A stretch of DNA of 64,000 nucleotides from NCBI GenBank assembly GCA_937949725.1, contig CALECT010000017.1, positions 13,243-77,242 on the forward strand, given 5' to 3'. Positions within the stretch are counted from its first letter, which is position 1; every line of letters starts with the position of its first letter. The DNA is from an uncultured Pseudanabaenaceae cyanobacterium. GTDB taxonomy: Bacteria > Cyanobacteriota > Cyanobacteriia > PCC-9006 > JAAUQQ01. This document shows positions 4,115-57,529 of the stretch, piece by piece. Position numbers and translations under genes: made by a program. Below the pieces are notes generated by a model, which was not told the DNA's origin, searched no databases, and saw nothing but the letters and a program-made list of their open reading frames with translations.

Positions 4115-4981
4115 ATGCCAAGCCTTGAGATCCGGGGTACGTCCCATGTCTACGACTTAACGGCACCAGCGAACTCTGATGTAGTGCTGGTGTTCATTCA
4201 TGGTTGGCTGCTGAGCCGCAGCTATTGGCGTCCACTGATTGACAAGCTGTCTCCACAGTTTCAATGCTTGTCCTATGATTTGCGGGGATTTGGTGATTCA
4301 TCTCAGATTTGTCCAGACGATTGCAGCTCCTATAGCCCTGCTGCTTATGCGGAAGACCTGAACCAACTTTTAGACCAGCTCAAGATTAAGAAGGCTTGGT
4401 TGGTGGGTCATTCTCTTGGGGGGACGATCGCCTTGTGGGGAGCCCATTCCTTGTCGACTCGCATTGCTGGAGTCACCTGCATTAATGCTGGAGGCGGCGT
4501 CTATCTCGAGCAGGAGTTTGAGCGCTTTCGGAACCTGGGCAAAAAGCTGGTGCAGTGGCGTCATCCACTGCTGGGCAAGTTACCCCTACTGGACTGGATG
4601 TTTGCGAAGGCAGGGACTGTCCAGCCCATGAATCATCATTGGCGGCGACAGCGGTTGTTGGATTACGTCGGAGCCCACAGCGCGGCGGCTCGAGGGGCAT
4701 TACTAGAGAGCACGACGCGGGAACAGGTGCATCGTTTGCCCCAGGTGGTTGCTCAGTTAGAGCAGCCGGTTTATTTCTTATCGGGCGATCGCGATCCCAT
4801 CATGCATCCCCGCTATGTGCGCCACTTGGCCAGCTTCCATCCTTTTTTTCAAGCAACCTGCGGCGAGAACCTGACAGAAATCGCTGACTGCGGCCATATG
4901 GCCATGGTGGAGCAAACGGAGCGAGTGGCAAGCCGACTCCAGGAGATTTTGGCTGCCCATCCGGTGCCGGTAGAGGCATAA
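4115..4981 (+). CDS. alpha/beta-fold hydrolase
   Basis: 288 aa with an HGW oxyanion region (VLVFIHGWLLS), a GHSLGG nucleophile elbow, and a C-terminal His (CGHMAMVEQ) consistent with a Ser-Asp-His triad. Confidence 0.8.
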   Translation: MPSLEIRGTSHVYDLTAPANSDVVLVFIHGWLLSRSYWRPLIDKLSPQFQCLSYDLRGFGDSSQICPDDCSSYSPAAYAEDLNQLLDQLKIKKAWLVGHSLGGTIALWGAHSLSTRIAGVTCINAGGGVYLEQEFERFRNLGKKLVQWRHPLLGKLPLLDWMFAKAGTVQPMNHHWRRQRLLDYVGAHSAAARGALLESTTREQVHRLPQVVAQLEQPVYFLSGDRDPIMHPRYVRHLASFHPFFQATCGENLTEIADCGHMAMVEQTERVASRLQEILAAHPVPVEA

Positions 4982-5041
4982 GCATTTAGGCAGCGTAACG
5001 TCGGAGCCGCGTTCTCCTGCCCAGGCTGTAGATATGCACAA

Positions 5042-5068
5042 GTATGGGCGAGAAGATCTCGCCCATAC
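5042..5068. terminator. perfect 11-bp stem hairpin (GTATGGGCGAG-aagat-CTCGCCCATAC) between convergent genes; candidate bidirectional terminator
   Basis: Read directly from the sequence. It lies between the stop of the hydrolase gene (4981, +) and the stop of ychF (5110, -). The flanking U-tracts are weak. Confidence 0.45.
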
Positions 5069-5109
5069 CAGGGTTATTAAACTTGAGATATGGCGCTGGA
5101 CTGAGGCCG

Positions 5110-6201
5110 TTACGCGCTGGTGAGGAAGTGCATGACATCCCCTTCAGCAACGACGTATTCTTTGCCTTCACTGCGGACCAAACCTTTGCTTTTGGCTACG
5201 CCCATGGAACCGTTATCCACTAGGTCTTGGTAGGAAACCGTCTCGGCCCGAATAAAGCAATGCTCGAAGTCAGTGTGAATCACGCCAGCAGCTTGGGGGG
5301 CGACCATGCCTTTGTGGATGGTCCAGGCGCGGGTCTCTTTGGGGCCGGTGGTGAAGTAGGTCTGGAGGCCTAGCAAAGAGTAGGTGGCGCGGATTAGAGA
5401 GCGTAGACCACCTTCCTCAACACCAAGGGATTCGAGGAATTCACCGCGCTCTTCTTCGGGGATCTCAACGAGTTCGGCTTCTACTTGGGCAGAAATGATC
5501 ACGACTTGGGCGCCTTCCGTTTCGGCGATCGCCTTGACCTGTTCAACCCACTCATTACCGCTAGACAAATCATCCTCAGACACGTTAGCGCCATAGATTA
5601 CCGGCTTGCGCGTGAGGAAGCCTAAAGCCTTAATGGCAAGCTCTTCGTCTTCGCTTAATTCCACGGATCGAGCGGGTTTACCTTCATTCAGAACGGGAAC
5701 CAGTTTCTCCAGAGCATCCACTTCGGTCTGGACTTCTTTGTTCTTGCGAACTTCTTTGCGAGCCCGGTCTAGGCGACGCTCCGCTTGATCCAGGTCAGCT
5801 AGGGCGAGTTCCAAGTTGATGACTTCCATGTCACGGCCCGGATCGACGGAGCCAGCCACATGGATGATGTCGTCATCGTCGAAGCAGCGCACGACATGCA
5901 CGATGGAATCCACTTCGCGGATATTGGCCAAAAACTGGTTGCCTAGGCCCTCGCCCTTGCTGGCTCCTTTCACGAGGCCTGCAATATCCACAAATTCCAC
6001 ACGGGCAGGCAGAATCTTCTCGGAGCTGGAAATATCTGACAAAACTTGGAGGCGGTCATCCGGAACTGAGACGATGCCAACGTTTGGCTCGATCGTGCAG
6101 AAGGGGAAATTGGCCGCTTGGGCCTTGGCATTGGCCACGAGGGCATTAAATAGCGTTGACTTACCAACGTTGGGTAGTCCAACAATTCCCGCTCTTAACA
6201 T
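5110..6201 (-). CDS. ychF: ribosome-binding ATPase YchF (Obg-family GTPase)
   Basis: 363 aa. N-terminal [22 protein letters not shown]-loop, …FCTIEPNVG…, a [11 protein letters not shown]3 region, and a C-terminal TGS domain. The length matches YchF. Confidence 0.9.
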
Positions 6202-6279
6202 GGGGATGCCTCAGCATTCTCCGGTGAATTTTAACAATGTGTACTTTAGCAGGTTCTGGGAGGAGCCGGAGTCCTTGGA

Positions 6280-7893
6280 ATGTCCGAATCACCGAACCTG
6301 CCGCTGTCCCAGTCCCCATTCCGGTCACCCTCAATGGGGGTGCGTTACGATGCCACTGCGGATTGTGATCGCGCTTACGAGGGTTTACACCGCGCCTTAG
6401 CTGACTCAGCACCCGAAACACAGACCAGGAACTATCTAGATATCGGCATGGGAAGTGAACGCAAAGTATCGCCTTGGCTTGTGGGAGCCATTTGTTTGGT
6501 GGTGGGCTTAGGGGCCGGTGGCTTGGGTACGTTTGCAGCCCGGCGAGGGGGCGGACTTCCGGCTGAGGAGCTGGAACGGTTGACCGTGGAAGCAGCGCGA
6601 TCGCCTCTAACCCTCAAAATCCGAGTCAATGGCAGTGTGGTTCCGGTCCGCAGTGTCAACCTCAGCCCCAAGACTGCAGGTCGTCTGGAGCGGTTACTGG
6701 TCAACCAGGGTGATGTGGTTGCAGCGGGCGATTTGCTCGCGGTGATGGAAAGCCAAGATTTAGAGTCCCAATTTGTCCAGGCCAAGGCTCGTCAGATTCA
6801 AGCAGAAGCTAACCTAAAGCAACTCCAAGCAGGGGGCACCGATGTTGTGGTGGCCCAGGGAGAGGAAGAAGTACGCCAGGCCCGCACTCAGATGGTGGTG
6901 GAAGCGGCCCAGGTCCGAGAAGCCGAAGCACAAATTGCTGAAGCTCAGGCTCAGGTGCAGGAATCCCAAGCCCAACTGGATTTAGCAGAGCAGCAGCTCA
7001 AGCGTAATTTGGCCCTTGAGAGTGAGGGGGCAATTTCCCGCGATCGCCTCGATGAACTGACCACCGCAGCCAATCGAGCCCGCGCCAACCTAGAACGCAG
7101 CCGGGCATCTCAAGTGCGTGCAGAAGCTGGACTTATACGGACTCAGGCCGCCCAAGCCCAGGCACAATCGCGTTTAGAGGCAGCCCAGCTCCGTTTGCAA
7201 GACACGTCTAGTAGTCAGCGCCCAGAGCTGATTGAACAGGCTGAAGCCCAAGTTTTTGAGGCTCTGGGCCAGGTTCAGGCTGTGGAAGTGCAAAAAAACG
7301 ACACCTTATTGCGGGCTCCCTTCGATGGCATTATCACCCAGCGCTTTGCAGATCCCGGTGCCTTTGTAACACCCACGACCTCCGCTTCTAGTACTGCCTC
7401 TGCGACCTCTACCTCTGTGGTAGCCCTAGCCCAAGGTCTAGAAGTGCTCGCCAATGTGCCAGAAGTGGACATCAATGCCGTCCGTCCTGGTCAGATCGTG
7501 GAGGTCAGCGCTGATGCGTTTCCTGAGCAGACTTTCATCGGTCAGGTTCGCCTGGTTTCGCCAGAGGCGGTAGAGGAGCAGAATGTGACTTCGTTTCAAG
7601 TGCGTGTGGCCTTGACGACGGGGCAAGACCAGCTGCGCTCCGGGATGAATGTGGATCTCACCTTTCTAGGGGAGAGCATTGGGAATGCTTTGGTGGTGCC
7701 GACGGTGGCGATAGTCACCCGAGAAGGGGAGCGCGGTGTCCTAGTGCCCGATCTCAAGAATGAGCCAGAGTTTCAGCCCGTAGAAACTGGGGTCAGCATT
7801 GGCAATGAGACCCAGATTCTGTCAGGAATTGACGCGGGGGAGCGAGTGTTTATTGATCTGCCCAGCGATCGCCGCTTCCAGGAAGAGGAGTAG
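6280..7893 (+). CDS. HlyD-family membrane-fusion / periplasmic adaptor protein of an efflux or ABC exporter (DevB-like); the true start is probably the internal Met at ~6448
   Basis: A TM helix ([16 protein letters not shown]) is followed by a very long Ala/Gln/Glu-rich coiled coil and the barrel/lipoyl signature …[19 protein letters not shown]…. Confidence 0.8.
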
Positions 7894-8496: not shown

Positions 8497-8543
8497 GTAT
8501 TTTTAGGACGGATATGGCAATGCCATATCCGTCCTAAAAATAC
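8497..8543. repeat. 47-bp perfect palindrome (GTATTTTTAGGACGGATATGGCA a TGCCATATCCGTCCTAAAAATAC)
   Basis: Read directly from the sequence. It lies just downstream of the sir stop (8589, -) and upstream of the rpmB start (8270). The A/T tracts sit inside the stem arms rather than 3' of it, so it is not a canonical intrinsic terminator in either orientation. Confidence 0.5.
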
Positions 8544-18277: not shown

Positions 18278-18487
18278 CAGGGCTGGGGGAGATGCGGGCT
18301 CTGGCCGATTTATTTTAGTCCCTGGCGCTTAAAACCGTGTCCGGTGTCGCCAAGTATTAAGTGGATTCACGGGGATGTCGCGGCATTTCGGGAAAACATC
18401 GTTGGCATTTCGTGGGGGCTCTAAACAGAAGATGCGCTGTCCATGGACAGCGCATCTTCTGTTTCTGCGTTGAAAATATGGCTGGCT

Positions 18488-20739: not shown

Positions 20740-22623
20740 GTGAATGACCTGCGATCGCTGCCTAACCCCAAATTCCTTGTGGATGAGATTCCCCCGTCAC
20801 CCATGCTGCAACATCTTTGTATTGAGAATTTCGCCCTGGTAGACCACCTCGAACTGGACCTAGGGGCTGGACTGCATGTGCTTACGGGGGAAACCGGGGC
20901 GGGTAAGTCGATTATTTTGGATGCGATCGATGCTGTCCTTGGAGGGCGGGTTCCGGGACGAGTCATTCGCACAGGGGAATCGCGAGCGCGGTTAGAGGCT
21001 TCATTTCGACCGGGAGCTGGGGTGACAGCTTGGCTGAAAAGCTTTGAGATTGACCCGCTGGATGATGGCTTAGTGGTGTGCAGCCGGGAGATTGTCTCCA
21101 ATGGCAATGGCAGTCGCAGTCGCAGCCGAGTTAATGGGGTCTTGGTTAATCGCCAGCAAATGGAGAGCCTGCGGGAGCATTTGGTGGAAATCACCGCCCA
21201 GGGCCAAACGGTACAGCTCTGTCAGGCAGCGCGCCAGCGGGATTGGCTGGATGCCTTTGGGGATGCCGCTCTGGATAAGCAGCGAGGTCTGGTTGCCAAG
21301 GCCTTTAACGATTACCAGGAGGCCAAGCAGGCTCTTGAGCGTCGCCACCAGGCTGAGGGGCAGCGGCTCCAATTGCTTGATATGTATGAGTTCCAAGCGA
21401 AAGAGCTGGAAGCGGCAGAGCTAAATGACCCCGATGAATTGGAGCAAGCCCAGCTGGACCATCAGCGTCTGGGCCATGCTGTGGAATTGCAGCAGCAGAG
21501 CTTCCAGGTCTATGAGTTGCTGTACCAAAACGATAACGGTGGCAATGCTTGCGCAGACCTATTGGGAGATGCGGAGCAAATTCTCCAGGAGATGATGCGC
21601 TTTGACCCTAACCTCCAGGGTGTTGTGGATCTGGTGAATGAGGCGATTACCCAGGTTCAGGAAGCGGGAAACCAGGTCAATAGCTATGGCGCGGGCTTGG
21701 AAACTGACCCGGAGACTCTGGCTGAGCTGGAAACGCGAATCCATGAGCTGAAGCAAATCTGCCGAAAGTATGGCCCGACTTTGGGTGACGCGATCGCCTA
21801 CTACGCCAAAATCAGCGCCGAGCTAGCCGCTTTCTCTGACGAAAACCAGTCCCTCGAAGCCCTAGAAGCCACCTTGACCGAAGCCGAGGCCAAGCTGGTG
21901 CAGCTCTGCGCCAAGCTCACCCAACTGCGCAGCAAAGTCGCAGCCAAGCTGGAGGCTCGCCTCCTGGCTGAACTCAAGCCCTTGGCGATGGATAAAGTGA
22001 AGTTCCAAGTGCAAATCAGTCCGGTGTTGCCCACCAGCTACGGTGCGGATGCCATCTGCTTCCTGTTTAGCCCCAACCCCGGTGAACCGCTCCAGCCATT
22101 GAGCGAAACGGCTTCCGGTGGTGAGATGAGCCGCTTCTTGCTGGCGCTCAAGGCTTGCTTCTCCCAGGTGGATCCGGTAGGAACGCTGGTGTTTGACGAA
22201 ATTGATACGGGGGTTTCGGGGCGGGTATCCCAGGCGATCGCCGATAAGCTCAGTCAGCTCGGCGAAAACCAGCAGGTTCTCTGTGTGACTCACCAGCCTC
22301 TGATTGCAGCTCGGGCGGATTGTCACTATCGGGTGCAGAAAGAGGTCTTGGCCGATGAAGGGAGAACGGTTGTAAGGGTTATGCCTTTGGGCGATCGCGA
22401 CAGCCGCCGTCAGGAACTCGCGGAACTTGCGGGCGGTAAATCTGCCCAGGAAGCCATTGCTTTTGCTGAGTCCCTGCTCTCCCAGGCTGAAGCGCAAAAG
22501 CTGGGCCAGCCAGGCTTTGTGGCGGTGTTACCTGAGAAGAAGAGCTCGAAGACGAAGGCGATCGCGAAAACAGCGAAAACAACGGTGCGCCGGACGCGGA
22601 AGCAAAAGGTGGCTGCAACCTAA
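20740..22623 (+). CDS. recN: DNA repair protein RecN; the likely true start is the Met at 20803, and the protein has an unusual Lys/Arg-rich C-terminal tail
   Basis: MLQHLCIENFALVDHLELDLGAGLHVLTGETGAGKSIILDAIDAVLGG is the canonical RecN N-terminus with its Walker A. A long coiled coil follows, then the C-terminal ABC signature region (…SGGEMSRFLLAL…, …LVFDEIDTGVSG…). The last ~35 aa are KKSSKTKAIAKTAKTTVRRTRKQK. Confidence 0.88.
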   Translation: MNDLRSLPNPKFLVDEIPPSPMLQHLCIENFALVDHLELDLGAGLHVLTGETGAGKSIILDAIDAVLGGRVPGRVIRTGESRARLEASFRPGAGVTAWLKSFEIDPLDDGLVVCSREIVSNGNGSRSRSRVNGVLVNRQQMESLREHLVEITAQGQTVQLCQAARQRDWLDAFGDAALDKQRGLVAKAFNDYQEAKQALERRHQAEGQRLQLLDMYEFQAKELEAAELNDPDELEQAQLDHQRLGHAVELQQQSFQVYELLYQNDNGGNACADLLGDAEQILQEMMRFDPNLQGVVDLVNEAITQVQEAGNQVNSYGAGLETDPETLAELETRIHELKQICRKYGPTLGDAIAYYAKISAELAAFSDENQSLEALEATLTEAEAKLVQLCAKLTQLRSKVAAKLEARLLAELKPLAMDKVKFQVQISPVLPTSYGADAICFLFSPNPGEPLQPLSETASGGEMSRFLLALKACFSQVDPVGTLVFDEIDTGVSGRVSQAIADKLSQLGENQQVLCVTHQPLIAARADCHYRVQKEVLADEGRTVVRVMPLGDRDSRRQELAELAGGKSAQEAIAFAESLLSQAEAQKLGQPGFVAVLPEKKSSKTKAIAKTAKTTVRRTRKQKVAAT

Positions 22624-22661
22624 GCCTTGCTAGGCGATGTCATACCGCTTGAATACTGCTG

Positions 22662-22879
22662 TAGAAGCAACCTGAGTTCGACAGTTCGAAAAAGCCCTTG
22701 CGAAGCAGGTTGGGAATAAATTCCCAACCTAAGAGCGAAAGCCCACTAAAGTGGGCTGCAACCCTAGCTGGTGGGCTGTTCAGTCCGTTTTAACGGACTT
22801 GAGCTTTGAGCCGTGAGGTTTAGCTCACGGCAGCAGAGCCAAGCCAGTCTTAAATTTGTCGAACTCAGGTTAGAAGCAA
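22662..22879. repeat. ~220-bp element bounded by inverted copies of CCTGAGTTCGAC (each next to a TAGAAGCAA direct repeat) and containing five consecutive short perfect hairpins; candidate miniature inverted-repeat element (MITE) or structured non-coding RNA
   Basis: Read directly from the sequence. TAGAAGCAA-CCTGAGTTCGAC sits at 22662-22682 and GTCGAACTCAGG-TTAGAAGCAA at 22858-22879. Internal hairpins are GTTGGGAATaaaTTCCCAAC (22709-22729), GCCCACtaaaGTGGGC (22741-22756), GTCCGttttaaCGGAC (~22783-22798) and CCGTGAGgtttagCTCACGG (22811-22830). No ORF lies inside. Confidence 0.5.
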
Positions 22880-22907
22880 TAAACGGCAATCAAATCAAAA
22901 CACAGGC

Positions 22908-22939
22908 GAGAGCTGACATGGCCTACCATGTCAGCTCTC
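22908..22939 (-). terminator. rho-independent terminator of the downstream Usp gene (14-bp perfect stem GAGAGCTGACATGG/CCATGTCAGCTCTC followed on the minus strand by a U-rich tract)
   Basis: Stem-loop read from the sequence. The minus-strand 3' flank reads GCCUGUGUUUUGAUUUGAUU. It lies immediately downstream of the stop of the 22975..23463(-) gene. Confidence 0.65.
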
Positions 22940-22974
22940 CTGTTTGAAACCTAACCGCCTAATTTCACCCTGCC

Positions 22975-23463
22975 CTAAACCTCTACGCTGGGCAGCTCAC
23001 CTTGAATTACCAGTACAGAGCAACTCGCTCTATGCAAGACATAGTTGCTAACGCTGCCTAGCATCAGTTCCGCCAGGCCAGAACGTCCTCGGCGACCTAG
23101 CAAAATTAACTCCGCTCCCCAAGCCTTTGCATTTTTGCAAATCAATGCGCCTGGCCCTCCGGCATCGTAGGCAATACTGGCTTTTACGTTGGATTGCTGC
23201 GCCCGTTCCTGGAAATGCTGAAGCCGCTCCTTTGTTTTGTTGAGATTGATTTGGGTCATCTCCACATCCAGGCTGGAAAAGTCTTGATCCGGTAGGGTTC
23301 CCAGGCTACTAGCAGGCTCCTTATAAAGGCTGGGAGCCCACTCCACACAGCTAAAAAGCATCAGCTCGCTCTCTTCACGATGGGCCAGGTCAATAGCCTG
23401 GTTAAAAACGCTTTCCGCATTGTCGTGGTGATCGAGGGCGACGAGGATCTTATGAAATGCCAT
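22975..23463 (-). CDS. universal stress protein (UspA family)
   Basis: 162 aa. MAFHKILVALDHHDNAESVFNQAIDLA… and a C-terminal …LILLGRRGRSGLAELMLGSVSNYVLHRASCSVLVI glycine-rich ATP-binding motif of UspA-like proteins. Confidence 0.85.
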   Translation of the reverse strand: MAFHKILVALDHHDNAESVFNQAIDLAHREESELMLFSCVEWAPSLYKEPASSLGTLPDQDFSSLDVEMTQINLNKTKERLQHFQERAQQSNVKASIAYDAGGPGALICKNAKAWGAELILLGRRGRSGLAELMLGSVSNYVLHRASCSVLVIQGELPSVEV

Positions 23464-30920: not shown

Positions 30921-32837
30921 TTAACCGCTCAGCAAAGCCTCAATGAACTCATAACTTGAGAAGGGCCGTAAGTCACCAATGCCTTCTCCAGCACCGATAA
31001 AGCGGATGGGCAGTCCCAGTTGCTTCACAACTGCCAGAGCCACGCCACCTCGGGCGGTGCCATCTAGCTTGGTGAGTACAACGCCGCTGAGTTCGGCTGC
31101 CTGGGCGAAGACTTCCGCCTGGCGTAGGCCGTTTTGGCCCAGGGTTGCATCCAGTACCAAAAGGGACTCGACCTTGGCTTCTGGGGCCTTCTTATCGATG
31201 ATGCGGCGAACTTTAGAGAGTTCTGCCATGAGGTTCTTCTTGTTTTGCAGGCGTCCAGCGGTATCGACGAGCAATAACTCAGTGTTGCGGCTGCGGGCAG
31301 CCTCGACTGCGTCATAGACCACAGCTGCGGGGTCAGTGTTTTGGCCGGGGTTGGCAATGACCTCAATGCCGCTCCGTTCTCCCCAGACTTGAACCTGTTG
31401 GACCGCAGCAGCTCGGAAGGTGTCCGCAGCGGCAATTAAGCAGCGATAGTCAGATTTGGTGGCCAGGTGGGCAAGTTTGCCGATGGTGGTGGTTTTGCCC
31501 GCGCCGTTGACCCCGGTCATTAGCCAGATGTTGAGGCGGTCTTTCTCGGGGGCTAGGACCGGCGGGTCGTTTTCGGAAAGGGGGGAGTCGAGCAGCTCTC
31601 GCAAGAGGCGCTTGAGGTAGGCGATCGCCTGGGCGGGCGGCAACACTTCTTCCTTGAGCTTGGCCTGGAGGGACTCAATGATGTAATCCGTGGCATCCAC
31701 GCCCACATCAGCTTGGAGTAGCAGGGATTCGATTTCATCGACGGCATCCTCGTTGAGGGGGCCTTGGCCGACGATGGACTTAAGCTGGTTAATCAGATTG
31801 AGGCGGGTTTTGCCCAATCCTTGGCGCAGGCGCTTAAGCCAGGTGATCTCTTCGGCAGAGATTTGGTCAGCACGTCGGCCTTGGGCAGCCAGGACCTCAG
31901 CGGACCAGATAAAGTCTTCGTCGAAGACAACGCCGGGGCCATAGCCGTCATCAACGTATTCTTCTTCGGGCTCGGGCTCCGGTTCGGGCTCTTCAATTGC
32001 CGTGGCCTGAAGGCGTTCCAGGCGCTCTTCCCGTTCTGCTTCAGCGCGGGCCAGGAAGCTCAGGGCGGGTTCGGGAGCTGCTTTAGGTTCCGGTGCGGCT
32101 TCAGGTTCAGGCGTCGCTTCTGGCTCGGGTGCTGTTTCTGACTCTGAAGTCGTTGCGGGTTCGGGAGTTGCCTCTGATTCAGATGCTTCAGCGGGTTCTG
32201 GCTCGGTTGAGCTAGGTTTGGGAGCAGGCTCGGCGGTGACTTCCTCAACGTCAGCACTTTCGGAAGCTGCAACGGTTGGTTCGGCTGCTTCGGGCTGGCT
32301 CTCTTCTGGCTCGACCGCTACTACGGATTCAGCAATGGCAGGCTCTGAGGCAGTCGCTGCTGTTTCAGTCGCGATCGGCTCGGCAGTGGCGGCAGGATCA
32401 GCTGATGATTCCGCCTCTTCTGCCACGGTCTCAGTGATCTGAGCAGGCTCAGGTTCTTTGGGAGCCGATTCTGGAACCGAGGCTTCTGGTTCAGGACTAT
32501 CTTCTTCTACCGCAGCAACTTCTGGCGCTGACGCCTCGGCTTCTGTCTCGGCAGATTCAGTTTCCGTGGTGCTCTGCTGAGACTTTATATTTTGGAATGC
32601 AGCCTTGGCGAACTCTAGATAATCATCATTATCTTCAGCCTCCTCGCCACTCGTCTCATCAGACTCCGCTGAATCCTGTTCGCCGGTTGCTTTGGACTCA
32701 TCCGCTTTAGGTTCGCTGTCCTTGCCCTTATCGTCATCGGCGTTAAATTTACGGCGAAACCAGTCAAAAGCCATGGCTGAAAACGAGGAGAGTAAATAGG
32801 GTTTGAAAGTTGAATTTAGGGTGGACGGAGACGCCAT
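30921..32837 (-). CDS. ftsY: signal recognition particle receptor FtsY with a long acidic, repeat-rich N-terminal A-domain
   Basis: 638 aa. The C-terminal NG domain has GVNGAGKTTTIGKLA (P-loop), …DTAGRLQNK…, …LTKLDGTARGG…. The N-terminal ~300 aa are E/P/A/T-rich (EPEPEPE, PEPEA repeats). Confidence 0.9.
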   Translation of the reverse strand: MASPSTLNSTFKPYLLSSFSAMAFDWFRRKFNADDDKGKDSEPKADESKATGEQDSAESDETSGEEAEDNDDYLEFAKAAFQNIKSQQSTTETESAETEAEASAPEVAAVEEDSPEPEASVPESAPKEPEPAQITETVAEEAESSADPAATAEPIATETAATASEPAIAESVVAVEPEESQPEAAEPTVAASESADVEEVTAEPAPKPSSTEPEPAEASESEATPEPATTSESETAPEPEATPEPEAAPEPKAAPEPALSFLARAEAEREERLERLQATAIEEPEPEPEPEEEYVDDGYGPGVVFDEDFIWSAEVLAAQGRRADQISAEEITWLKRLRQGLGKTRLNLINQLKSIVGQGPLNEDAVDEIESLLLQADVGVDATDYIIESLQAKLKEEVLPPAQAIAYLKRLLRELLDSPLSENDPPVLAPEKDRLNIWLMTGVNGAGKTTTIGKLAHLATKSDYRCLIAAADTFRAAAVQQVQVWGERSGIEVIANPGQNTDPAAVVYDAVEAARSRNTELLLVDTAGRLQNKKNLMAELSKVRRIIDKKAPEAKVESLLVLDATLGQNGLRQAEVFAQAAELSGVVLTKLDGTARGGVALAVVKQLGLPIRFIGAGEGIGDLRPFSSYEFIEALLSG

Positions 32838-49438: not shown

Positions 49439-52400
49439 ATGGCCGCAGCTTTTTCAACCACTGGAAAGACCTTGGCATTTTTGCCGCTTTTGGGTGTTGC
49501 GTCGCCTTTTGCCCAGGCGGCTGAAGTTCCCTTTCCCAGTCTTTCCCCCTTTCCCAATCAGCCTGACCCCATGGTGAGTGGGTCACAGGTTGGGCAAACT
49601 GCTGCAATCGCATCCCCCATTACACCGCTTGCAGACAGTATGTCTGTGGAAGCCAGCAGTCCTCAGTTTGTCGCCCAAGTACTGCCGACGGATGGCGCGA
49701 CCCAGACCCAAGTTTTGGTGGATGCTGGGGGGGACCAATTTGAGATTAGGGGCGGGGCCCAGGCGGGGGAAAACCTGTTCCACCGTTTTGATCAGCTTGA
49801 TCTAGAGGCGGGGCAGACTGCCAATTTCCAAACCCCTGCGGGACTCGAAGCAGTCTTTAGTCAGGTGGGTGGAGGTCCTTCCAGCATTGATGGCACGCTC
49901 AAAGTGAGCGGCAGCTCAGCGGATCTCTTTTTGCTCAACCCTAATGGCGTTGTCTTTGGTCCCAATGCGCAGCTGGACTTGAATGGTTCTTTCACTGCGA
50001 CTACTGCGGATCGTATCCAGGTTGGTGACCAGTGGGTTGACCTCTTGGAAGAAGGGGTCACCGCTCAAACAGCGGTGGCGGGCTCGGTGGAGGCTTTGGA
50101 GTTTTCTGCGGATGCAGCAGGGGGGGCGATCGCCAACCAAGGCCAGCTCGCTGTCACGGATGGTCAGTCCCTGGGATTGCTTGGCAATGCGGTAGTCAAT
50201 ACGGGCTCGCTGTCAGCCCCTGGCGGAGAGGTCACTGTGTTGTCTGCCAGTGGCGGTCAGCGGGTGAGTCTTGAGGGAGGCCTGCTAAATCTTGAGTTGC
50301 CTGGGGCTCAGGCTGGCTCTAGCCCAAGGCATAGTCTCCCCGCTGTTGTGGCTCAACCCGTGGCTGAAGCCACTGGCCTGAGCTTAAATGCCGACGGGTC
50401 TGTTTCCCTGCAAGCAGGCACTAGTGTTTTATCTGGAACAGTGGATGTGTCTTCCGCTGAAGCCGTTGGTGGCCAGGTCAAAGTCTTGGGGAATGAAGTC
50501 CAGGTCACGAATGCAGTTGTTGATGCATCTGGCGCGGCTGGTGGTGACATTCATGTGGGTGGAGATTACCAGGGACGCGGGGAGATGCTCCGTGCTGTCT
50601 CGACTCGGCTAAATGCTGCCTCGGTTCTACGAGCCGATGGTATAGCTTCAAACTCGGACATTCGTCCCGATGGCGGAGAGGTTATTGTTTGGTCCGATGG
50701 CACTGCTGAGTTTGCTGGAACGGCTACGGCACGTTCATTGGCTCCCGGTGGAGACGGTGGCCTGGTGGAGACCTCTGGCAAACAGCAGTTAAATATTGTC
50801 TCTACAACTAATGTAAATACAGCTTCGGTGGATGGTGCAACGGGGCGGTGGCTGATTGACCCGTTGGACCTGACGGTTGTGAATGGTGGTGGAGTTGGAA
50901 CCATTACTGGTGGCGCAAATGATCCTTTGTCTAGCACGATTGATGCTGCCACTGTAGAAACGGCTCTGGATGGAAATAATGTTCAGCTGCAGGCAACTAA
51001 TTCCATTACGGTGGATGCTCCCATTGATGCCTCCACGAATATCAGCGGTGGCAACCTGGGGCTGGATGCTCCAACGCTGAATTTGAATGAGCGAGTGACT
51101 CTAGTTTCAGGAAGTCAACTTTCTGGGACTGCTAACACGGTCAATGTGGGTGCCAATGGCAGCATCCAGAATGCTGTGGATGCTGCGGTTTCAGGTGGAA
51201 CTGTGAATCTTGCCGCTGCTACCTATCGAGAAGGTAGTGAGATTATTGTTGATAAACAAATCCGCTTACAGGGCCAAGGTACAGCGAGTACAACGATTAG
51301 CGGTGATGCCAATGGTGATGGCAATGCTGCTGGCAATCGCGCAGATAATCATCGCATTCTGCACTTAGATAGCAGTGCAGATGGTACGACTCTATCCGGC
51401 ATAACTTTTAGCGATGGCATCACCAGCTCGGGGGGGGGAGGAATCGAGAATGATGCCGATAATGTCACCATCGAAAATAGTGTTTTTTCCAATAACCGAG
51501 TATTGGGTAGTGGAGAGGATGGGGGAGCAATCCATACCCATGGTGATGGCCTAAGAATTGACAATACCCTCTTTACAATCAACGTGGCAGAAGATGATGG
51601 TGGGGCGATTGATATCGGAAATGGTTCCGTAGAAATCAGCAATAGCATCTTTGCTGATAATGGTGCACTTAATGGTGATGGTGGAGCTATTGATATTGAC
51701 CCGAATGGTTCCTTAACTATCGCTGCTAGTCGTTTTGAATCTAATACTGCAGTGGGCGATGGTGGAGCAATTTATAGTGAGGGGAGGCTGCAAATTGACC
51801 AGACTGAGTTTGATGGAAATTTGGCGGTTGACGAAGGCGGAGGAATTGCTCTCGCTCAATCCTCAGATGCCACTATTGAAGACTCTCGCTTCATTAGCAA
51901 TTCAGCGACTCGTGGGGGAGGGATTGTTGCTCTGGGTAATGCTGCTAGCAGCCTCACGATTACTAATAGTGAATTTGAGCTGAATACAGCGACGACTTCA
52001 GCCGCTGGAGATGGAGGTGCAGTTCAGATTGCGTCTAGTGGTAGCATCACTATCCAAGATTCTGAGTTTCGCAATAATGAAGCCCAAGATGATGGAGGTG
52101 CGATTGAGATTTTTCAGGGTGCTTTGACGCTCCGCGACAATGCTTTTTCAAATAACCGTGCGGCGGATGGTCACGGAGGAGCACTTGATATAGATTCTCC
52201 TGCTAGCGTCATTGCTTCGGGTAATACTTTCACATTCAATGAAGCACCACTGGGAGGAGCGATCGCCAATGATGGCTCCATCAGCATTACCAATGATCTC
52301 TTCCAAAACAATGTTGCCTCAGTTGATGGAGGAGCAATTTACCAGAAAGCCGATGGGATTGCGCAAATCTCAACAGCTGAGTTCACGGGGAATACTGCAG

Positions 52401-55400
52401 GCTCAGAGGGAGGGGCGATTTACCAGCAGGACAGTAGCACCACGACTATTCTAAATTCTGATTTCAGAGATAATCAGGCTGTTGAATTTGGTGGGGCGAT
52501 CGCGAACCAAGGGGATAGCAATAGTCAATTAGATATTACAGGTGGCACCTTTTTACGGAATAGAGTGACTTCTAGCAGTTCAGTCTTGGGAGATGGAGGT
52601 GCCATCTTCATTGGTAGCAGTAGTAGTAATACAATTTCTGGAACGACGTTTTCTGCTAATACGGCAGCACTTGATGGAGGGGCAATCGCCGCAGAAGGAG
52701 CCGCAGAACTCAATATCGACGGAGCATCTTTCGTAAGCAATCAATCCCTCGGAGATAACGGCGGCGGATTATTTCTGATCGGAGATGCCACGCTGAACTT
52801 GAGTAATAGTGTTTTAGCTGGAAACACAGCAGCACAGGCTGGAGGGGGACTTTTTCAGTTTCAGAATGCCAAGTCCACGATTCTCAACACGCGATTTGAG
52901 AATAACCAGGCGGCTACGAGTGGGGGAGCGATCGCATCCCAAATCAATGCCAGCGGTCAGCTCACGATCTCCGGTAGCACTTTTGATAGCAATAGCGCTC
53001 AACAGGATGGCGGTGGTCTCTACTTGGATGCCCCTGCTGGAAGCTTGCTCTCGCTCAGTCAAAGCTTCTTCCTTAATAACAGTGCGCGGTCTGGTGGTGG
53101 CTTATTTAAGACGAATTCTGCTGACTTGACCATTGCGAATACACTTTTTGAACGCAATACCGCTACTGATCATGGAGGCGGCCTGGCAGCTCAATCCAGT
53201 AGTGGCATGATCACTCTGATGGATAGCAATATTGTTCAAAATGTTGCTGGGATAGATGGCGGTGGGATTCGCTTAAATGCTAGCAATCTTTCAGCCAGTA
53301 ACAGTTTGATCCTGACAAATGAAGCAACATTTGGTGGAGGCTTAGAGCTGGGCACTGGCAGCTCTGCCCTGGTGGACAATGTTCTGTTTCAGGGCAATGA
53401 CAGTTCCTCGCATGGTGGGGCAATCTCGATTGATGATTCTTCAATGGCAACGGTTACCAATAGTCGTTTCCTGAACAATCAATCTGATGGCCGAGGCGGT
53501 GCTATCAATACCAATGGTAGTTTGAGTCTTGATACTTCTTTAGTTCAAGCGAATAGTGCTGCGCAGAGAGGGGGAGGCATTGCCTTACAAGGCTCTAGCA
53601 GTGGCGCCGTTACAATTCGCTCTACAACTGTTAATGGTAATACCACTTCTGCCAGTGGTGGTGGGTTGTCCCATGAGGGCAGCCAAACCCTAATGATTGA
53701 GGGTAGTACCTTTAGTAACAATAATGCGACTGCTAATGGGGCTGGTTTAGACCTAAACCCCACGGCCTCTAGTCCTCCAATCCAACTGCAGAACAGCACT
53801 ATTTCAAGTAATATATCGGACTCTAGCGGTGGTGGGCTTTCTCTGGGGGCAAATGCCCCAGTGGACCTGAACAATGTAACGGTTGCAAATAATACTGCTA
53901 CCAGTGGTGGTGGTGGATTGACTAACCTCTTCGGTGGTAGTTTGACTTTGCAAAACACCATTGTGGCTGGAAATACCGCTGCGAGTAATCCAGACATTGC
54001 TGGCGTAATAACGAGCCTGGGCAATAATATTGTTCGAAGTCGAGCGACGAGCACGGGATATGTCAGCTCTGATTTGCCAGATGGCACGGATCCTCTCCTT
54101 TTGTCCTTGGCCAATAATGGTGGCCTGACTGAGACCCATGCACTAAGAGCAAATAGTGTTGCTGTTGATGCTGGTAATGGCAGTGCGACCTTCACAGATC
54201 AACGAGGCCTGACTGCTGTCAACCATCGAGATATTGGTGCTTATGAGCTGGACAATAACTTGACCGCTGTCACCAGTGGATTTGGGCAAACGACCCAGGT
54301 CACCCAAGCGTTTGCTAATCCTATTGAGCTGAGCATCACAGATTCTTTTGGGAGCGCGATCGCGGGTGTGGACGTTGTTGTGTCAGCTCCGACGACTGGA
54401 GCGAGCGCGAGCCTAGGTACATTGCGCACTGATGACAGTGGTGTTGCAACTGCCATAGCAACGGCTAATACAGTGGCTGGGACTTATGCCATCACGTTGG
54501 ATATTGGAAACCCACTCAATTTATATGGAATTTCCCTAACAAACACTCCTGATGTTCCTGACCAAATTGCGATCCTCAATGGCGACAACCAAAGCACCGT
54601 CGTCAATACTGCGTTTGCGAATCCACTTCAGCTTGCGGTGACAGATCAGTTTGGTAATCCGATTCCATTGCAGGCGTTAGGGGTTAGCTTGCCGGGCAGT
54701 GGCGCTAGCGCTACTGCAACCAATGGTACTGATCTTAATGCCATCTTTCTGGTAACTGATAGTGCAGGGCAAGTGATGGTCGATCTCACTGCTAATACGA
54801 TCGCTGGAAACTATGGGGTTGGTCTTACATCTGGAAGCCTAAGCAACAATGCAACGCTAACCAATCTGCCTGATGCCCCTGCACAACTGCTGGTGAACAG
54901 TGGCAATAACCAGAGCACCGTCGTTAATACTGCTTTTGCCAACCCGCTTCAGGCTACAGTTACGGACCAGTTTGGCAATGCGGTTCCTGGAGTGACCGTT
55001 GATTTGAGTTTGCCGGGAGCTGGGGCGAGTTCCAATGCGGGTGAGATCGCCTTAACCACCGATAATTTGGGGCAGGCTACCACTAGCCTCACTGCCAATA
55101 CTATCTCTGGCAGCTATGCCGTTGGCTTAACGGCGGGTGTCCTAGCGAGCAATCTGAGCTTGGAAAATCTGCCCGACGCACCGGCCCAGCTCAATGGCAA
55201 TGCTCAGACCACGGTGGTCAATACAGCCTTTGCTGATCCGCTTCAGGTGACGGTAACGGATCAATTTGGAAATGCGGTGCCGGGGGTGGCAGTGAATGTC
55301 AGTCTGCCGGGAGCTGGAGCAAGTGCCAATGCAGGGACAGTGGCTCTAACAACGGATGCGGCGGGCCAAGCGAACACTGGACTGGTGGCAAATACCACTG

Positions 55401-57529
55401 CTGGAGGCTATGGCCTCAGTTTATCGGCGGGGAGCTTGACGAGTAATGTTCCGCTCACCAATTTACCCGATGCTCCCGCTCATTTAGATGTCCTGGATGG
55501 AGATGGCCAGAGTACAGTTGTAAACACAGCATTTTCTAATCCGCTATTGGTGGCAGTAACGGATCAGTTTGGCAATGTTGTCCCAGGGGCGATCGTGAAC
55601 TTGAGTTTCCCAGGGACTGGGGCGAATGTCAGTGATAGCTCAACGGGTGGGGCTGTCTCGCTGACAACGGATAGCCTGGGGCAGGCCAGCACCAGCTTTG
55701 TAGCGAATACCGTTGCCGGTTCCTATGGCATTGGCTTATCGACGGGTACTGTGAGCAGCGGTATTAGCCTCACCAATTTGCCTGATGCTCCAGCCGAAGT
55801 GAACTTGCTAGGTGGCAATGAGCAAGTGGCACAGGTGAATACCACTTTTGCGGATGAGTTGCGAGTACAAGTTTTGGATCAGTTTGGCAATGTTATTCCA
55901 GGAGTGACCGTAACCTTTACTGCACCTACAGCAGGACCAAGCTCTGCGGCCAGTGCTGAACTTTCTGCGGTGACGGTAACGACTGATGGGGCGGGTGAGG
56001 GACAAGCCCTAGCGACAGCGAATGGACAAGCCGGAGCCTATCAAGTGGAGGCTGAGGTTGGGATTGCAACTGTGACGTTTGAACTGGAAAATGTTGTAGA
56101 TACGCCTTTACCAGAGTTACCAGAGCCAGAGGAGCTACCGCAAATATCTCTGCCTCCCACTCAAGCTCCCGAGTCCCCCACAGGAGCGCCGAGCGCGCCA
56201 GCTCCCCTAAGTTTGGTAAATACGACTGTGGTTGAGGAGATCGACAGTAGCTTCTCCGCTGCCTATACAGACTATTGGGGGACGCCTGCCTCAAGGGGGG
56301 TGACCGTAGCAGAAACCCGAATGGTCCTCGACAATGCGACAGAGGCCCATGGTGTGAACTCAGCGGTGGTCTATGGTTTGTTTGTCCCCCAGGCTCAAGC
56401 TGCGGATGAAGGGTTTGGAGCAACTCAAGTGGCGAGCATGGCGCTGAATCGCCGAGCTCAAACCGAGGAGCAGCGGGATGATGACCAGTTGATGTTGGTG
56501 TTGGTGCCCAGTAAAGGGCCGCTTGTGCAGCAGTTAGTGAGCGTGACCCGTGAGGAACTGTTGCAACAGGCTCGACTCTTTCGCATGGCGGTGTCGGACC
56601 CCTATGACGAATGGAGCTACAAGCCCTTGGCCCAGCAGATGTATAGCTGGATGTTGGAACCTGTGGAGTCAGAGCTAGAGCGCTTAAAACTCGATAACGT
56701 GATGTATGTGATGGATGCAGGGCTGCGGACCTTGCCCCTCGCGGCGATGATGAAAGAGGATGAGTTTGCCATTGAGCGCTATGGAATTTCTCTGATTCCC
56801 AGTGTTGATTTGCTGGAAACAGATTTTGGAGCTTCGGCTCCATCCTCTCAAATTGTGGCAGCGGGGGCGACGGAGTTTGAGCAGTTAAACGATCTCCCTG
56901 CGGTGGGGTTAGAGTTGGATGTTATTTCTTCACAGGCCATCCCGGAGACCACTCAGCAAAATTCAGTGAATGTGTTGTTCAATGAAGACTTTACTCAGGA
57001 GAATCTGCTTCAGGCACAGCAGGAAGGCCCAGCCAATATGCTTCATCTCGCCACCCACGGTGAGTTTAATGCGGGTGATTTAGGGAGTTCCTATCTGCAG
57101 TTTTGGGATGATCAGCTCACGTTGGATGACATTAGTAAACTGGGTTGGGATGAACTAGAGTTGCTCATTCTCAGCGCTTGCCAAACTGCCATTAGCAGCC
57201 CCGAAGCAGAGCTGGGTTTTGCAGGACTTGCAGCAGCCACCGGCGTTGAGAGTACCATTGGTAGCCTGTGGAGCGTTTCTGACATAGGAACGCTGGGCTT
57301 AATGAGTGAGTTTTATGGACAACTTGCTAAGACTCCCCTACGTTTTGAAGCCTTGCGTCAGGCCCAGATGGCGATGTTGCAGGGAGAGACTCGCTTAACT
57401 AATCAGCAGCTACAGACCGAGCGAGGTGACATTGATTTACCAGAGGAGTGGGATTTACCTGAGTCGGCTGACTTCTCCCATCCTTTCTACTGGTCTGGCT
57501 TTACCCTGGTGGGAAATCCTTGGTGGTAG
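49439..57529 (+). CDS. giant (~2700 aa) two-partner-secretion (TpsA-type) exoprotein. It has an N-terminal filamentous-haemagglutinin TPS domain, a beta-helix of PMP-type repeats, six Big_1 Ig-like repeats, a Pro-rich linker and a C-terminal CHAT (caspase-like) protease domain. The start is set to the Met preceding the signal peptide; the ORF track starts at 49382.
   Basis: Signal peptide MAAAFSTTGKTLAFLPLLGVASPFAQA. TPS (haemagg_act) core …QFEIRGGAQAGENLFHRFDQLDLEAGQTANFQ…IDGTLKVSGSSADLFLLNPNGVVFGPNAQLDLNGSFTATTADRI…. From residue ~640 to ~1760 there are dozens of DGGAI…F(S/R/Q)NN(R/Q/S)A repeats. Residues ~1620-2240 hold six ~100-aa units (…QSTVVNTAFANPLQ..VTDQFGN.VPG..V…LTTD..GQA….AN…G.Y…). 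The linker is PLPELPEPEELPQISLPPTQAPESPTGAPSAPAP. The C-terminal CHAT domain has the His motif MLHLATHGEF and the Cys motif LILSACQTA, and ends …FYWSGFTLVGNPWW. Confidence 0.85.
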   Translation: MAAAFSTTGKTLAFLPLLGVASPFAQAAEVPFPSLSPFPNQPDPMVSGSQVGQTAAIASPITPLADSMSVEASSPQFVAQVLPTDGATQTQVLVDAGGDQFEIRGGAQAGENLFHRFDQLDLEAGQTANFQTPAGLEAVFSQVGGGPSSIDGTLKVSGSSADLFLLNPNGVVFGPNAQLDLNGSFTATTADRIQVGDQWVDLLEEGVTAQTAVAGSVEALEFSADAAGGAIANQGQLAVTDGQSLGLLGNAVVNTGSLSAPGGEVTVLSASGGQRVSLEGGLLNLELPGAQAGSSPRHSLPAVVAQPVAEATGLSLNADGSVSLQAGTSVLSGTVDVSSAEAVGGQVKVLGNEVQVTNAVVDASGAAGGDIHVGGDYQGRGEMLRAVSTRLNAASVLRADGIASNSDIRPDGGEVIVWSDGTAEFAGTATARSLAPGGDGGLVETSGKQQLNIVSTTNVNTASVDGATGRWLIDPLDLTVVNGGGVGTITGGANDPLSSTIDAATVETALDGNNVQLQATNSITVDAPIDASTNISGGNLGLDAPTLNLNERVTLVSGSQLSGTANTVNVGANGSIQNAVDAAVSGGTVNLAAATYREGSEIIVDKQIRLQGQGTASTTISGDANGDGNAAGNRADNHRILHLDSSADGTTLSGITFSDGITSSGGGGIENDADNVTIENSVFSNNRVLGSGEDGGAIHTHGDGLRIDNTLFTINVAEDDGGAIDIGNGSVEISNSIFADNGALNGDGGAIDIDPNGSLTIAASRFESNTAVGDGGAIYSEGRLQIDQTEFDGNLAVDEGGGIALAQSSDATIEDSRFISNSATRGGGIVALGNAASSLTITNSEFELNTATTSAAGDGGAVQIASSGSITIQDSEFRNNEAQDDGGAIEIFQGALTLRDNAFSNNRAADGHGGALDIDSPASVIASGNTFTFNEAPLGGAIANDGSISITNDLFQNNVASVDGGAIYQKADGIAQISTAEFTGNTAGSEGGAIYQQDSSTTTILNSDFRDNQAVEFGGAIANQGDSNSQLDITGGTFLRNRVTSSSSVLGDGGAIFIGSSSSNTISGTTFSANTAALDGGAIAAEGAAELNIDGASFVSNQSLGDNGGGLFLIGDATLNLSNSVLAGNTAAQAGGGLFQFQNAKSTILNTRFENNQAATSGGAIASQINASGQLTISGSTFDSNSAQQDGGGLYLDAPAGSLLSLSQSFFLNNSARSGGGLFKTNSADLTIANTLFERNTATDHGGGLAAQSSSGMITLMDSNIVQNVAGIDGGGIRLNASNLSASNSLILTNEATFGGGLELGTGSSALVDNVLFQGNDSSSHGGAISIDDSSMATVTNSRFLNNQSDGRGGAINTNGSLSLDTSLVQANSAAQRGGGIALQGSSSGAVTIRSTTVNGNTTSASGGGLSHEGSQTLMIEGSTFSNNNATANGAGLDLNPTASSPPIQLQNSTISSNISDSSGGGLSLGANAPVDLNNVTVANNTATSGGGGLTNLFGGSLTLQNTIVAGNTAASNPDIAGVITSLGNNIVRSRATSTGYVSSDLPDGTDPLLLSLANNGGLTETHALRANSVAVDAGNGSATFTDQRGLTAVNHRDIGAYELDNNLTAVTSGFGQTTQVTQAFANPIELSITDSFGSAIAGVDVVVSAPTTGASASLGTLRTDDSGVATAIATANTVAGTYAITLDIGNPLNLYGISLTNTPDVPDQIAILNGDNQSTVVNTAFANPLQLAVTDQFGNPIPLQALGVSLPGSGASATATNGTDLNAIFLVTDSAGQVMVDLTANTIAGNYGVGLTSGSLSNNATLTNLPDAPAQLLVNSGNNQSTVVNTAFANPLQATVTDQFGNAVPGVTVDLSLPGAGASSNAGEIALTTDNLGQATTSLTANTISGSYAVGLTAGVLASNLSLENLPDAPAQLNGNAQTTVVNTAFADPLQVTVTDQFGNAVPGVAVNVSLPGAGASANAGTVALTTDAAGQANTGLVANTTAGGYGLSLSAGSLTSNVPLTNLPDAPAHLDVLDGDGQSTVVNTAFSNPLLVAVTDQFGNVVPGAIVNLSFPGTGANVSDSSTGGAVSLTTDSLGQASTSFVANTVAGSYGIGLSTGTVSSGISLTNLPDAPAEVNLLGGNEQVAQVNTTFADELRVQVLDQFGNVIPGVTVTFTAPTAGPSSAASAELSAVTVTTDGAGEGQALATANGQAGAYQVEAEVGIATVTFELENVVDTPLPELPEPEELPQISLPPTQAPESPTGAPSAPAPLSLVNTTVVEEIDSSFSAAYTDYWGTPASRGVTVAETRMVLDNATEAHGVNSAVVYGLFVPQAQAADEGFGATQVASMALNRRAQTEEQRDDDQLMLVLVPSKGPLVQQLVSVTREELLQQARLFRMAVSDPYDEWSYKPLAQQMYSWMLEPVESELERLKLDNVMYVMDAGLRTLPLAAMMKEDEFAIERYGISLIPSVDLLETDFGASAPSSQIVAAGATEFEQLNDLPAVGLELDVISSQAIPETTQQNSVNVLFNEDFTQENLLQAQQEGPANMLHLATHGEFNAGDLGSSYLQFWDDQLTLDDISKLGWDELELLILSACQTAISSPEAELGFAGLAAATGVESTIGSLWSVSDIGTLGLMSEFYGQLAKTPLRFEALRQAQMAMLQGETRLTNQQLQTERGDIDLPEEWDLPESADFSHPFYWSGFTLVGNPWW
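54258..56100 (+). repeat. six tandem ~300-bp coding repeats (Big_1 Ig-like domain units) inside the giant gene
   Basis: Unit starts at ~54258, 54582, 54898, 55192, 55492 and 55807 (spacings 316/294/300/315 nt). Units share long identical nucleotide stretches (for example …GTCGT(C/T)AATAC(T/A)GC(G/T)TTTGC(G/C)AA(T/C)CC…, …ACGGATCAGTTTGG(T/C)AAT…). Confidence 0.8.

Follow-up and report, generated by a model that had tools for sequence, protein, structure and literature searches.

A probable miniature inverted-repeat transposable element with IS1634-type ends between recN and usp in a cyanobacterial genome

Introduction

[quoted passage not shown] Their common features are a length of about 200 bp, the lack of an open reading frame, perfect terminal inverted repeats next to a short duplication of the target, dispersal in many copies between genes, a strong predicted secondary structure, and presence or absence at a given site between close relatives, and the element described here resembles them in all of these respects. 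In cyanobacteria, MaeMITEa to MaeMITEh have been described from Microcystis aeruginosa NIES-843 (PMC2779907), and M. aeruginosa PCC 7806 carries a 187-nt MITE that has been attributed to an ISL3 transposase (PMC11448079). Among autonomous elements, the IS1634 family is characterized by AT-rich target duplications of 5-6 bp and an end consensus of C-----YT (De Palmenaer et al. 2008, PMC2266710), and it occurs in cyanobacteria as well, for example as ISMae31 with 41 copies (PMC2779907).

The locus considered here lies between recN and a convergent gene for a universal stress protein (usp) in a 64-kb stretch of DNA, the whole of which is referred to below as the window. The window can be recognized as cyanobacterial because the HIP1 motif GCGATCGC recurs throughout its repeat listing and because the best named relatives of its RecN belong to the Leptolyngbyaceae and Elainellaceae. 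Positions 22669-22871 very probably represent one copy of a 203-bp MITE, ordinary in kind, whose family is not described in the literature searched; a literature search with its terminal sequence returned only mouse primers and no related MITE sequence. The terminal repeat of this element is of the IS1634 type, in contrast to that of the PCC 7806 MITE with its ISL3 attribution (PMC11448079). The comparisons below define a previously unnamed MITE family in Pseudanabaenaceae-like cyanobacteria that is tied to IS1634-type ends. For the window itself, the element accounts for 209 bp between recN and usp that are a lineage-specific insertion, and it has little importance beyond annotation; mildly notable are the inversion of whole hairpins between copies and the reuse of one 15-nt terminus across phyla.

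The Element and Its Setting

The two genes (Table 1; the recN call of 606 aa comes from public assemblies) converge on a spacer that measures 351 nt in the window, and the element occupies an AT-rich stretch directly past the T-rich tail of the hairpin that follows usp. Only spurious open reading frames of 41 and 44 aa, which start or end outside the element, overlap its 203 nt. Neither a second copy nor additional terminal repeats of the element occur within the 64-kb window.

Table 1. Features of the recN-usp region, in window coordinates
Feature	Position	Strand	Description
recN	20803..22623	+	Upstream neighbour; stop 45 nt ahead of the element; Pfam SMC_N and AAA_23; RecN homologues
Left target-site duplication, AGAAGC	22663..22668	.	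6 bp; recurs at 22872-22877; single AGAGGC in L104
Element (very probable MITE)	22669..22871	+	203 nt, no coding capacity; copies elsewhere by nhmmer and BLAST; L104 alignments break at 22670 and 22872
Left terminal inverted repeat, AACCTGAGTTCGACA	22669..22683	+	15/15 complementary to 22857-22871
Hairpin H1	22707..22730	.	11 bp, perfect in window copy; 1-3 mismatches in most copies; 84% of cells pair
Hairpin H2	22740..22757	.	8 bp, loop TAAA; 97% of cells pair across copies
Hairpin H3	22782..22799	.	8 bp; 98% of cells pair
Hairpin H4	22810..22831	.	8 bp; weaker pairs extend stem to about 22800-22841
Right terminal inverted repeat, TGTCGAACTCAGGTT	22857..22871	-	15 nt, 100% complementary to left arm
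Right target-site duplication, AGAAGC	22872..22877	.	6 bp; from comparison with other copies and the L104 empty site
Terminator-like hairpin of usp, outside the element	22908..22939	-	14-bp stem, then T-rich tail GCCTGTGTTT
usp (universal stress protein)	22975..23463	-	Convergent with recN; Pfam Usp, E = 2e-28

A sequence-only reading of this segment had described its ends as a 12-bp inverted repeat next to a 9-bp direct repeat. The inverted repeat is real and longer than was thought, with arms of 15 nt that are fully complementary, the right one being invariant in all 14 copies of the family alignment and missing from a diverged copy at locus L004. The 9-mer, TAGAAGCAA, is likewise present, at 22662-22670 and 22871-22879, where it shares 2 nt (left) and 1 nt (right) with the inverted repeat, but it is not significant by itself, as two or more matches arise in 15 of 100 shuffles, and the true duplication is the 6-mer AGAAGC. 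The longer repeat was seen because the 6-bp duplication has three chance-matching neighbours, a T at one end and AA at the opposite end. Across the family, the bases that adjoin the duplication are usually T and, on the far side, AA, and the target resembles T-N5/6-AA. The alternative register, in which a 9-bp duplication would enclose ends of the form CCTGAG...CTCAGG, was rejected, given that the inner AA/TT is nearly invariant and the outer T and AA are not; it fails as well in copies with 6-bp duplications.

Between the terminal repeats, the four inner stem-loops in series (H1 to H4) are found as they had been reported, and the impression of secondary structure beyond expectation is borne out by folding of both strands. 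The minimum free energy of the plus-strand RNA is -104 kcal/mol, compared with -64.7 +/- 4.7 for 200 dinucleotide shuffles (z = -8.3), and the minus strand is equally far from its shuffles (z = -8.2). That both strands fold equally well follows from the stems listed in that reading being, in the window copy, purely Watson-Crick.

The Orthologous Spacer in Relatives

In relatives found through RecN homologues, the order of ABC1 kinase gene, recN, and convergent usp is kept. Their recN-usp spacers measure 104 nt (L103), 45 nt (L003), 24 nt (L004 and L007), and, with unrelated sequence, 169 nt (L006); in L005, recN is followed by different genes and by a different repeat. None of the seven relatives examined has the element in its orthologous spacer, which marks the segment as lineage-specific.

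The most informative of these relatives, L104, was found among the members of the RecN cluster. Its RecN and Usp are 97.8% and 98.8% identical to those of the window, the nucleotide identity of the flanks is 92% and 87%, and it provides an exact empty site, with one AGAGGC and no element. At the site itself, L104 reads GCTGG-AGAGGC-AATAAACGG and the window reads GCTGT-AGAAGC-(203 nt)-AGAAGC-AATAAACGG; over longer flanks, GAATAATGCTGG-AGAGGC-AATAAACGGCAATCG in L104 corresponds to GAATACTGCTGT-AGAAGC-(203 nt)-AGAAGC-AATAAACGGCAATCA in the window. In the BLAST alignments between the two, the breaks fall at window positions 22670 and 22872, and on the L104 side the aligned segments have 8 nt in common. 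Origin of the L104 allele through deletion is not credible, a single 6-mer being left behind. The element is also lacking in L103, whose RecN is 94% identical, and the insertion postdates the split of the lineage of the window from its closest sampled relative. A search of JGI metagenomes for the predicted empty-site 22-mer did not find it.

The hairpin at 22908-22939 is present in both L104 and L103, which are free of the element. Its proposed role as the usp terminator agrees with a terminator scan of the minus strand, as a consensus match only. Any recN transcript that continues as far as this hairpin would contain the element as part of its 3' untranslated region. An effect of the insertion on the recN or usp transcripts is possible.

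A separate small repeat accompanies recN in L005, a 6.1-Mb relative with a RecN 73% identical to that of the window. At L005:6829-6937, just after recN, lies a different element of about 110 nt, bounded by inverted ends of the GTAGGTTGGGTTGAGGC type and containing a direct repeat (CAACCCAACAGGGCC-AGGCGTTGGGTTT); it may be another small MITE.

A Dispersed Family in Related Genomes

When one genome per species was searched with the terminal pattern AACCTGAGTTCGACARWTYK, which fits either end, 52 loci were returned. As the window's own locus was absent from the matches, its source genome is not in the scanned collection. The copy counts derive from an exact 20-mer scan and are lower bounds. By BLAST and an nhmmer profile, the 203-nt unit with its four hairpins is represented by 11 full copies, 3 partial copies, and one diverged copy, the last in L004. 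At least 13 further copies besides that of the window are thus dispersed at unrelated intergenic loci of related genomes, the outcome that the search for multiple copies had been proposed to reveal. Three genome bins labelled "uncultured Pseudanabaenaceae cyanobacterium" contain at least 10 copies on different contigs (CALLAT01), at least 3 (CALIGI01), and at least 1 (CALLPZ01). Pairwise identity among the 11 full copies is 81-99%, with a mean of 90%, and with full copies differing by about 10% on average (1-19% pairwise) the family may no longer be active.

Seven of the 10 other full copies are flanked by a clean, private duplication of 5-6 bp directly outside AACC...GGTT (cacat, agaggc, aaagc, acaga, aatag, ggtatt, and caaac). 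In the remaining three, the duplication matches at 5 of 6 positions (L057), is 4 bp long (L035), or is degenerate (L039). Together with the empty site in L104, these dispersed copies uphold the original suggestion of a MITE with terminal inverted repeats and a target duplication. The same observations bear on another alternative, that the segment has no mobile origin and is ordinary intergenic sequence particular to its lineage, for example a series of terminators. Terminators are expected between convergent genes and only one copy occurs in the window, but this explanation is refuted by a fold as far from its shuffles as that given above, by at least 13 near-identical copies elsewhere, by the private duplications that flank most full copies, and by the exact empty site, and it can be given almost no credence.

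The copies are all intergenic and occur in different contexts, most of them 4-125 nt past a stop codon. Eight copies lie within 125 nt after a stop (L033, L035, L038, L039, L041, L057, L012, and the window). Seven of them have their left end toward the stop (p about 0.07, from crude ORF calls), so that an orientation bias behind stop codons is suggestive only. The copy in L044, whose AGAGGC duplication resembles that of the window, was considered as an orthologous insertion and rejected, as neither recN nor usp is present there and the site is independent; a 162-aa ORF adjoining the L046 copy proved not to be a Usp. No match to the element was obtained by blastn among 72,556 plasmids, and the terminal pattern had no match in viral contigs.

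Two further members depart from the common form. At L012:2699-2852 lies a 154-nt deletion variant without H1, whose junction falls between the similar internal words GCTCGAAAAAGCAC and GAGCGAAAGCCCAC. At L004:8530-8740, a diverged copy of about 79% identity that has lost its terminal repeats lies under the 5' end of a called DUF2927 gene. This gene is called at 439 aa in L004 compared with 375-395 aa in relatives, and its start has probably been over-extended through the repeat. It is a warning for annotation that copies of such a MITE may pass for RNA genes or, as probably in this DUF2927 case, may lengthen the call of a gene.

Ends Shared with IS1634-Family Elements

The element shares its terminal core, GAGTTCGACAG, with three full-length, autonomous insertion sequences of the IS1634 family. 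In Geobacillus proteiniphilus (L036), a 1.9-kb insertion sequence at 4874-6805 has the ends AACCTGAGTTCGACAG and CTGTCGAACTCGGGT and a 596-aa ORF that scores 408 bits on NCBIfam model NF033559 (IS1634 family; cutoff 100). A metagenomic insertion sequence (L082, 102-2027) encodes a 565-aa ORF with 378 bits on the IS1634-family model, and it begins with 21 nt that match the MITE's left end exactly. The third, ISAzo6, is found on plasmid NC_006824.1 of Aromatoleum aromaticum EbN1, where its 16-nt ends, CCGGAGTTCGACAGTT, pair perfectly and are flanked by a 6-bp duplication, CTACCG; RefSeq annotates it as "IS1634-like element ISAzo6 family transposase".

Comparison of the MITE with these ISAzo6-like elements shows that the likeness extends beyond the core. 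Both have a terminal core of the form (C)C(T/G)GAGTTCGACAG(T)T, both continue at the sub-terminal left end with GAGTTCGACAGTTC and then with GAAAAA and GCCC words, and both are associated with target duplications of 5-6 bp (PMC2266710). The differences are that the MITE, at 203 bp, has no transposase gene, whereas the ISAzo6-like elements are about 1.9 kb long, and that the MITE ends carry two extra bases (AA/TT) relative to ISAzo6, in which the duplication directly abuts CCGGAG. In keeping with this offset, CCTGAGTT fits the consensus C-----YT only when counted from 2 nt inside the MITE end (AA-CCTGAGTT), whereas ISAzo6 fits from its true end.

On the strength of these ends, the mobilizing transposase was likely a member of the IS1634 family, of the ISAzo6-like subgroup. 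Such a DDE transposase, supplied from elsewhere, would recognize the 15-bp terminal inverted repeats, cut the MITE out, and paste it into a staggered cut in the target DNA, and repair of the staggered cut would leave the duplication of 5-6 bp, AGAAGC at the window site. Neither the window, nor any of the MITE-bearing loci, nor any cyanobacterium examined yielded an IS1634-family transposase with these ends; its absence from the window and from beside the copies is what would be expected of a non-autonomous element. No full-length partner was seen in the clade of the MITE, and the single IS1634 element inspected from a cyanobacterium, that of Gloeothece (L106), differs in its ends.

Several short GC-rich palindromes that follow one another in the spacer between two convergent genes might also belong to a different kind of mobile palindrome. 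This could be a REP-like palindrome cluster (REPIN or BIME), for which a RAYT tyrosine transposase would be responsible, or an IS200/IS605-type element associated with palindromes. REPINs and IS200/IS605 derivatives are not known to make either terminal inverted repeats or target duplications, whereas this element has terminal inverted repeats of 15 bp, duplications of 5-6 bp at most full copies, and a clean empty site. Moreover, its ends match those of IS1634-family DDE elements, and its four palindromes differ in sequence and always move together as the 203-nt unit. An origin of this type is very improbable.

The Same Terminus in Other Phyla

The 15-nt terminus AACCTGAGTTCGACA also heads unrelated multi-copy short elements in other phyla (loci L009-L060 and L061-L102), examples being L019, L022, and L029; L014, L042, and L060; L011, L051, and L055; L009, L018, L040, and L054; and L031. 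Sulfurimonas crateris has an AT-rich MITE of about 200 nt with this terminus, and an Anaerolineae bin has MITEs with duplications of 5-6 bp (ACCAT, AATCAT, and ATAAT). Within the Cyanobacteriota, it borders a family of at least 9 copies in bin H41-bin165 and a Nostoc MITE with the duplication AAATT, and a further family occurs in Pedobacter. A near-identical terminus is thus found in unrelated MITE families of Cyanobacteriota, Bacteroidota, Campylobacterota, and Chloroflexota. As the ends of IS1634-family elements are otherwise described as poorly conserved (PMC2266710), the subgroup with this terminus stands out. Candidate "transposase" ORFs at single-end matches in other phyla were rejected, being housekeeping genes, so that these matches are due to chance or to MITEs.

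Hairpins That Flip between Copies

Across copies, H2, H3, and H4 are paired in 97-98% of cells and H1 in 84%, and whole hairpins are inverted between copies. H2 takes the form CACTAAAGTG (loop TAAA) in 7 of 15 aligned sequences and that of its exact reverse complement, CACTTTAGTG (TTTA), in 6 of 15; of the remaining two, L032 has the loop TTCA and the deletion variant in L012 has TTTA with diverged arms. In the copy at L038 (5417-5621), H3 and H4 are the exact reverse complements of the consensus, and the 5' arm of the extended H4 has been changed from GCTTTGAGCCGTGA to GCTCTGCCGCCGTGA, giving a perfect 15-bp palindrome. The flipped hairpins correspond to columns 78-95, 121-138, and 150-171 of alignment A2.

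Hairpin flips and the correction of one arm against the other are known marks of intrastrand template switching in quasi-palindromes. Ripley and Lovett have each reportedly described template-switch mutagenesis in Escherichia coli, and Kelchner and Wendel are reported to have described inversions of hairpin loops in the spacers of chloroplast DNA. The MITE resembles these minute inversions and quasi-palindrome corrections in that loops and asymmetric stem positions are swapped for their exact reverse complement and in that the L038 arm has been rewritten to match the other arm; it differs in that the flips are seen among copies of a transposable element and not at one locus across species. The near-perfect stems therefore seem best explained by template switching at the DNA level within imperfect palindromes, not by selection on an RNA. 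Under this explanation, the inner hairpins would be inherited features of the MITE family whose stems were perfected by template switching at replication, and a neutral repeat would come to look over-designed because template switching perfects palindromes. The flips would then provide a clean natural example of template-switch mutation perfecting imperfect palindromes. In view of the pairing of H2 to H4 in nearly all cells and of a few double changes that preserve pairs, some selection on hairpin structure is also possible.

The principal alternative, raised in the sequence-only reading alongside a MITE, is a structured non-coding RNA, acting either as a 3'-UTR module of recN that stabilizes or terminates the transcript or as a small RNA gene whose functional form would comprise the four hairpins within a long closing stem. 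The stability of the fold, the pairing of H2 to H4, and the position of copies close behind stop codons with the same end toward the stop would all suit such a function, as would 8 pairs preserved by double changes, a number that just 2 of 500 shuffles attained. Most of these double changes, however, come from the single diverged copy in L004, and the RNAalifold covariation term of the copy alignment is +0.2, which lends no support, partial rows and an alternative GTGGGCT pairing having made that run uninformative. The weak match to the Rfam family Pseudomonadales-1 reaches 25.3 bits against a gathering threshold of 68; no Rfam family attains its gathering score anywhere in the 64-kb window, and at E values up to 10 the region 22500-23050 gives only sub-threshold, chance-level matches. 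No promoter-like site was predicted in 22400-23200. Further evidence against an RNA comes from the mobility of the segment, which is absent from the orthologous spacer even where RecN is 97.8% identical and is dispersed elsewhere with target duplications, and from the strand symmetry of stems that are purely Watson-Crick in the window copy. Finally, the inversion of whole hairpins between copies argues against RNA function because a flip alters the loop sequence of any transcript. A structured RNA is, on balance, an improbable account of the segment, and a neutral MITE is preferred.

A broader possibility combines the MITE with function: the hairpin cassette may have been selected as a portable 3'-end module of the host, and one IS1634 subgroup may be a prolific source of MITEs across phyla. 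The first part would fit the copies found 4-125 nt past stop codons, mostly in the same orientation, with H2 to H4 kept paired. If true, the cassette would be a transcript stabilizer or terminator delivered behind genes, and the cross-phylum AACCTGAGTTCGACA terminus would mark one IS1634 subgroup as an unusually prolific MITE source. This combination is considered unlikely, and the MITE without such a role remains the favored reading.

Other Repeats in the Window

Several other repeats were observed in the window. A perfect palindrome with 23-nt arms and a 1-nt spacer lies at 8497-8543, and another with 21-nt arms and no spacer at 18423-18464, just downstream of the ABC1 kinase gene. The coding regions at 50200-52700 and 58800-63000, about 8.3 kb apart, are large, diverged duplicates with GGxGxD-like repeat words in common; at 54300-55900 lies a tandem array whose period is about 300 nt, and an 18-nt periodic repeat is found at 32065-32202. 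These last four regions probably belong to genes for repeat-rich secreted or surface proteins.
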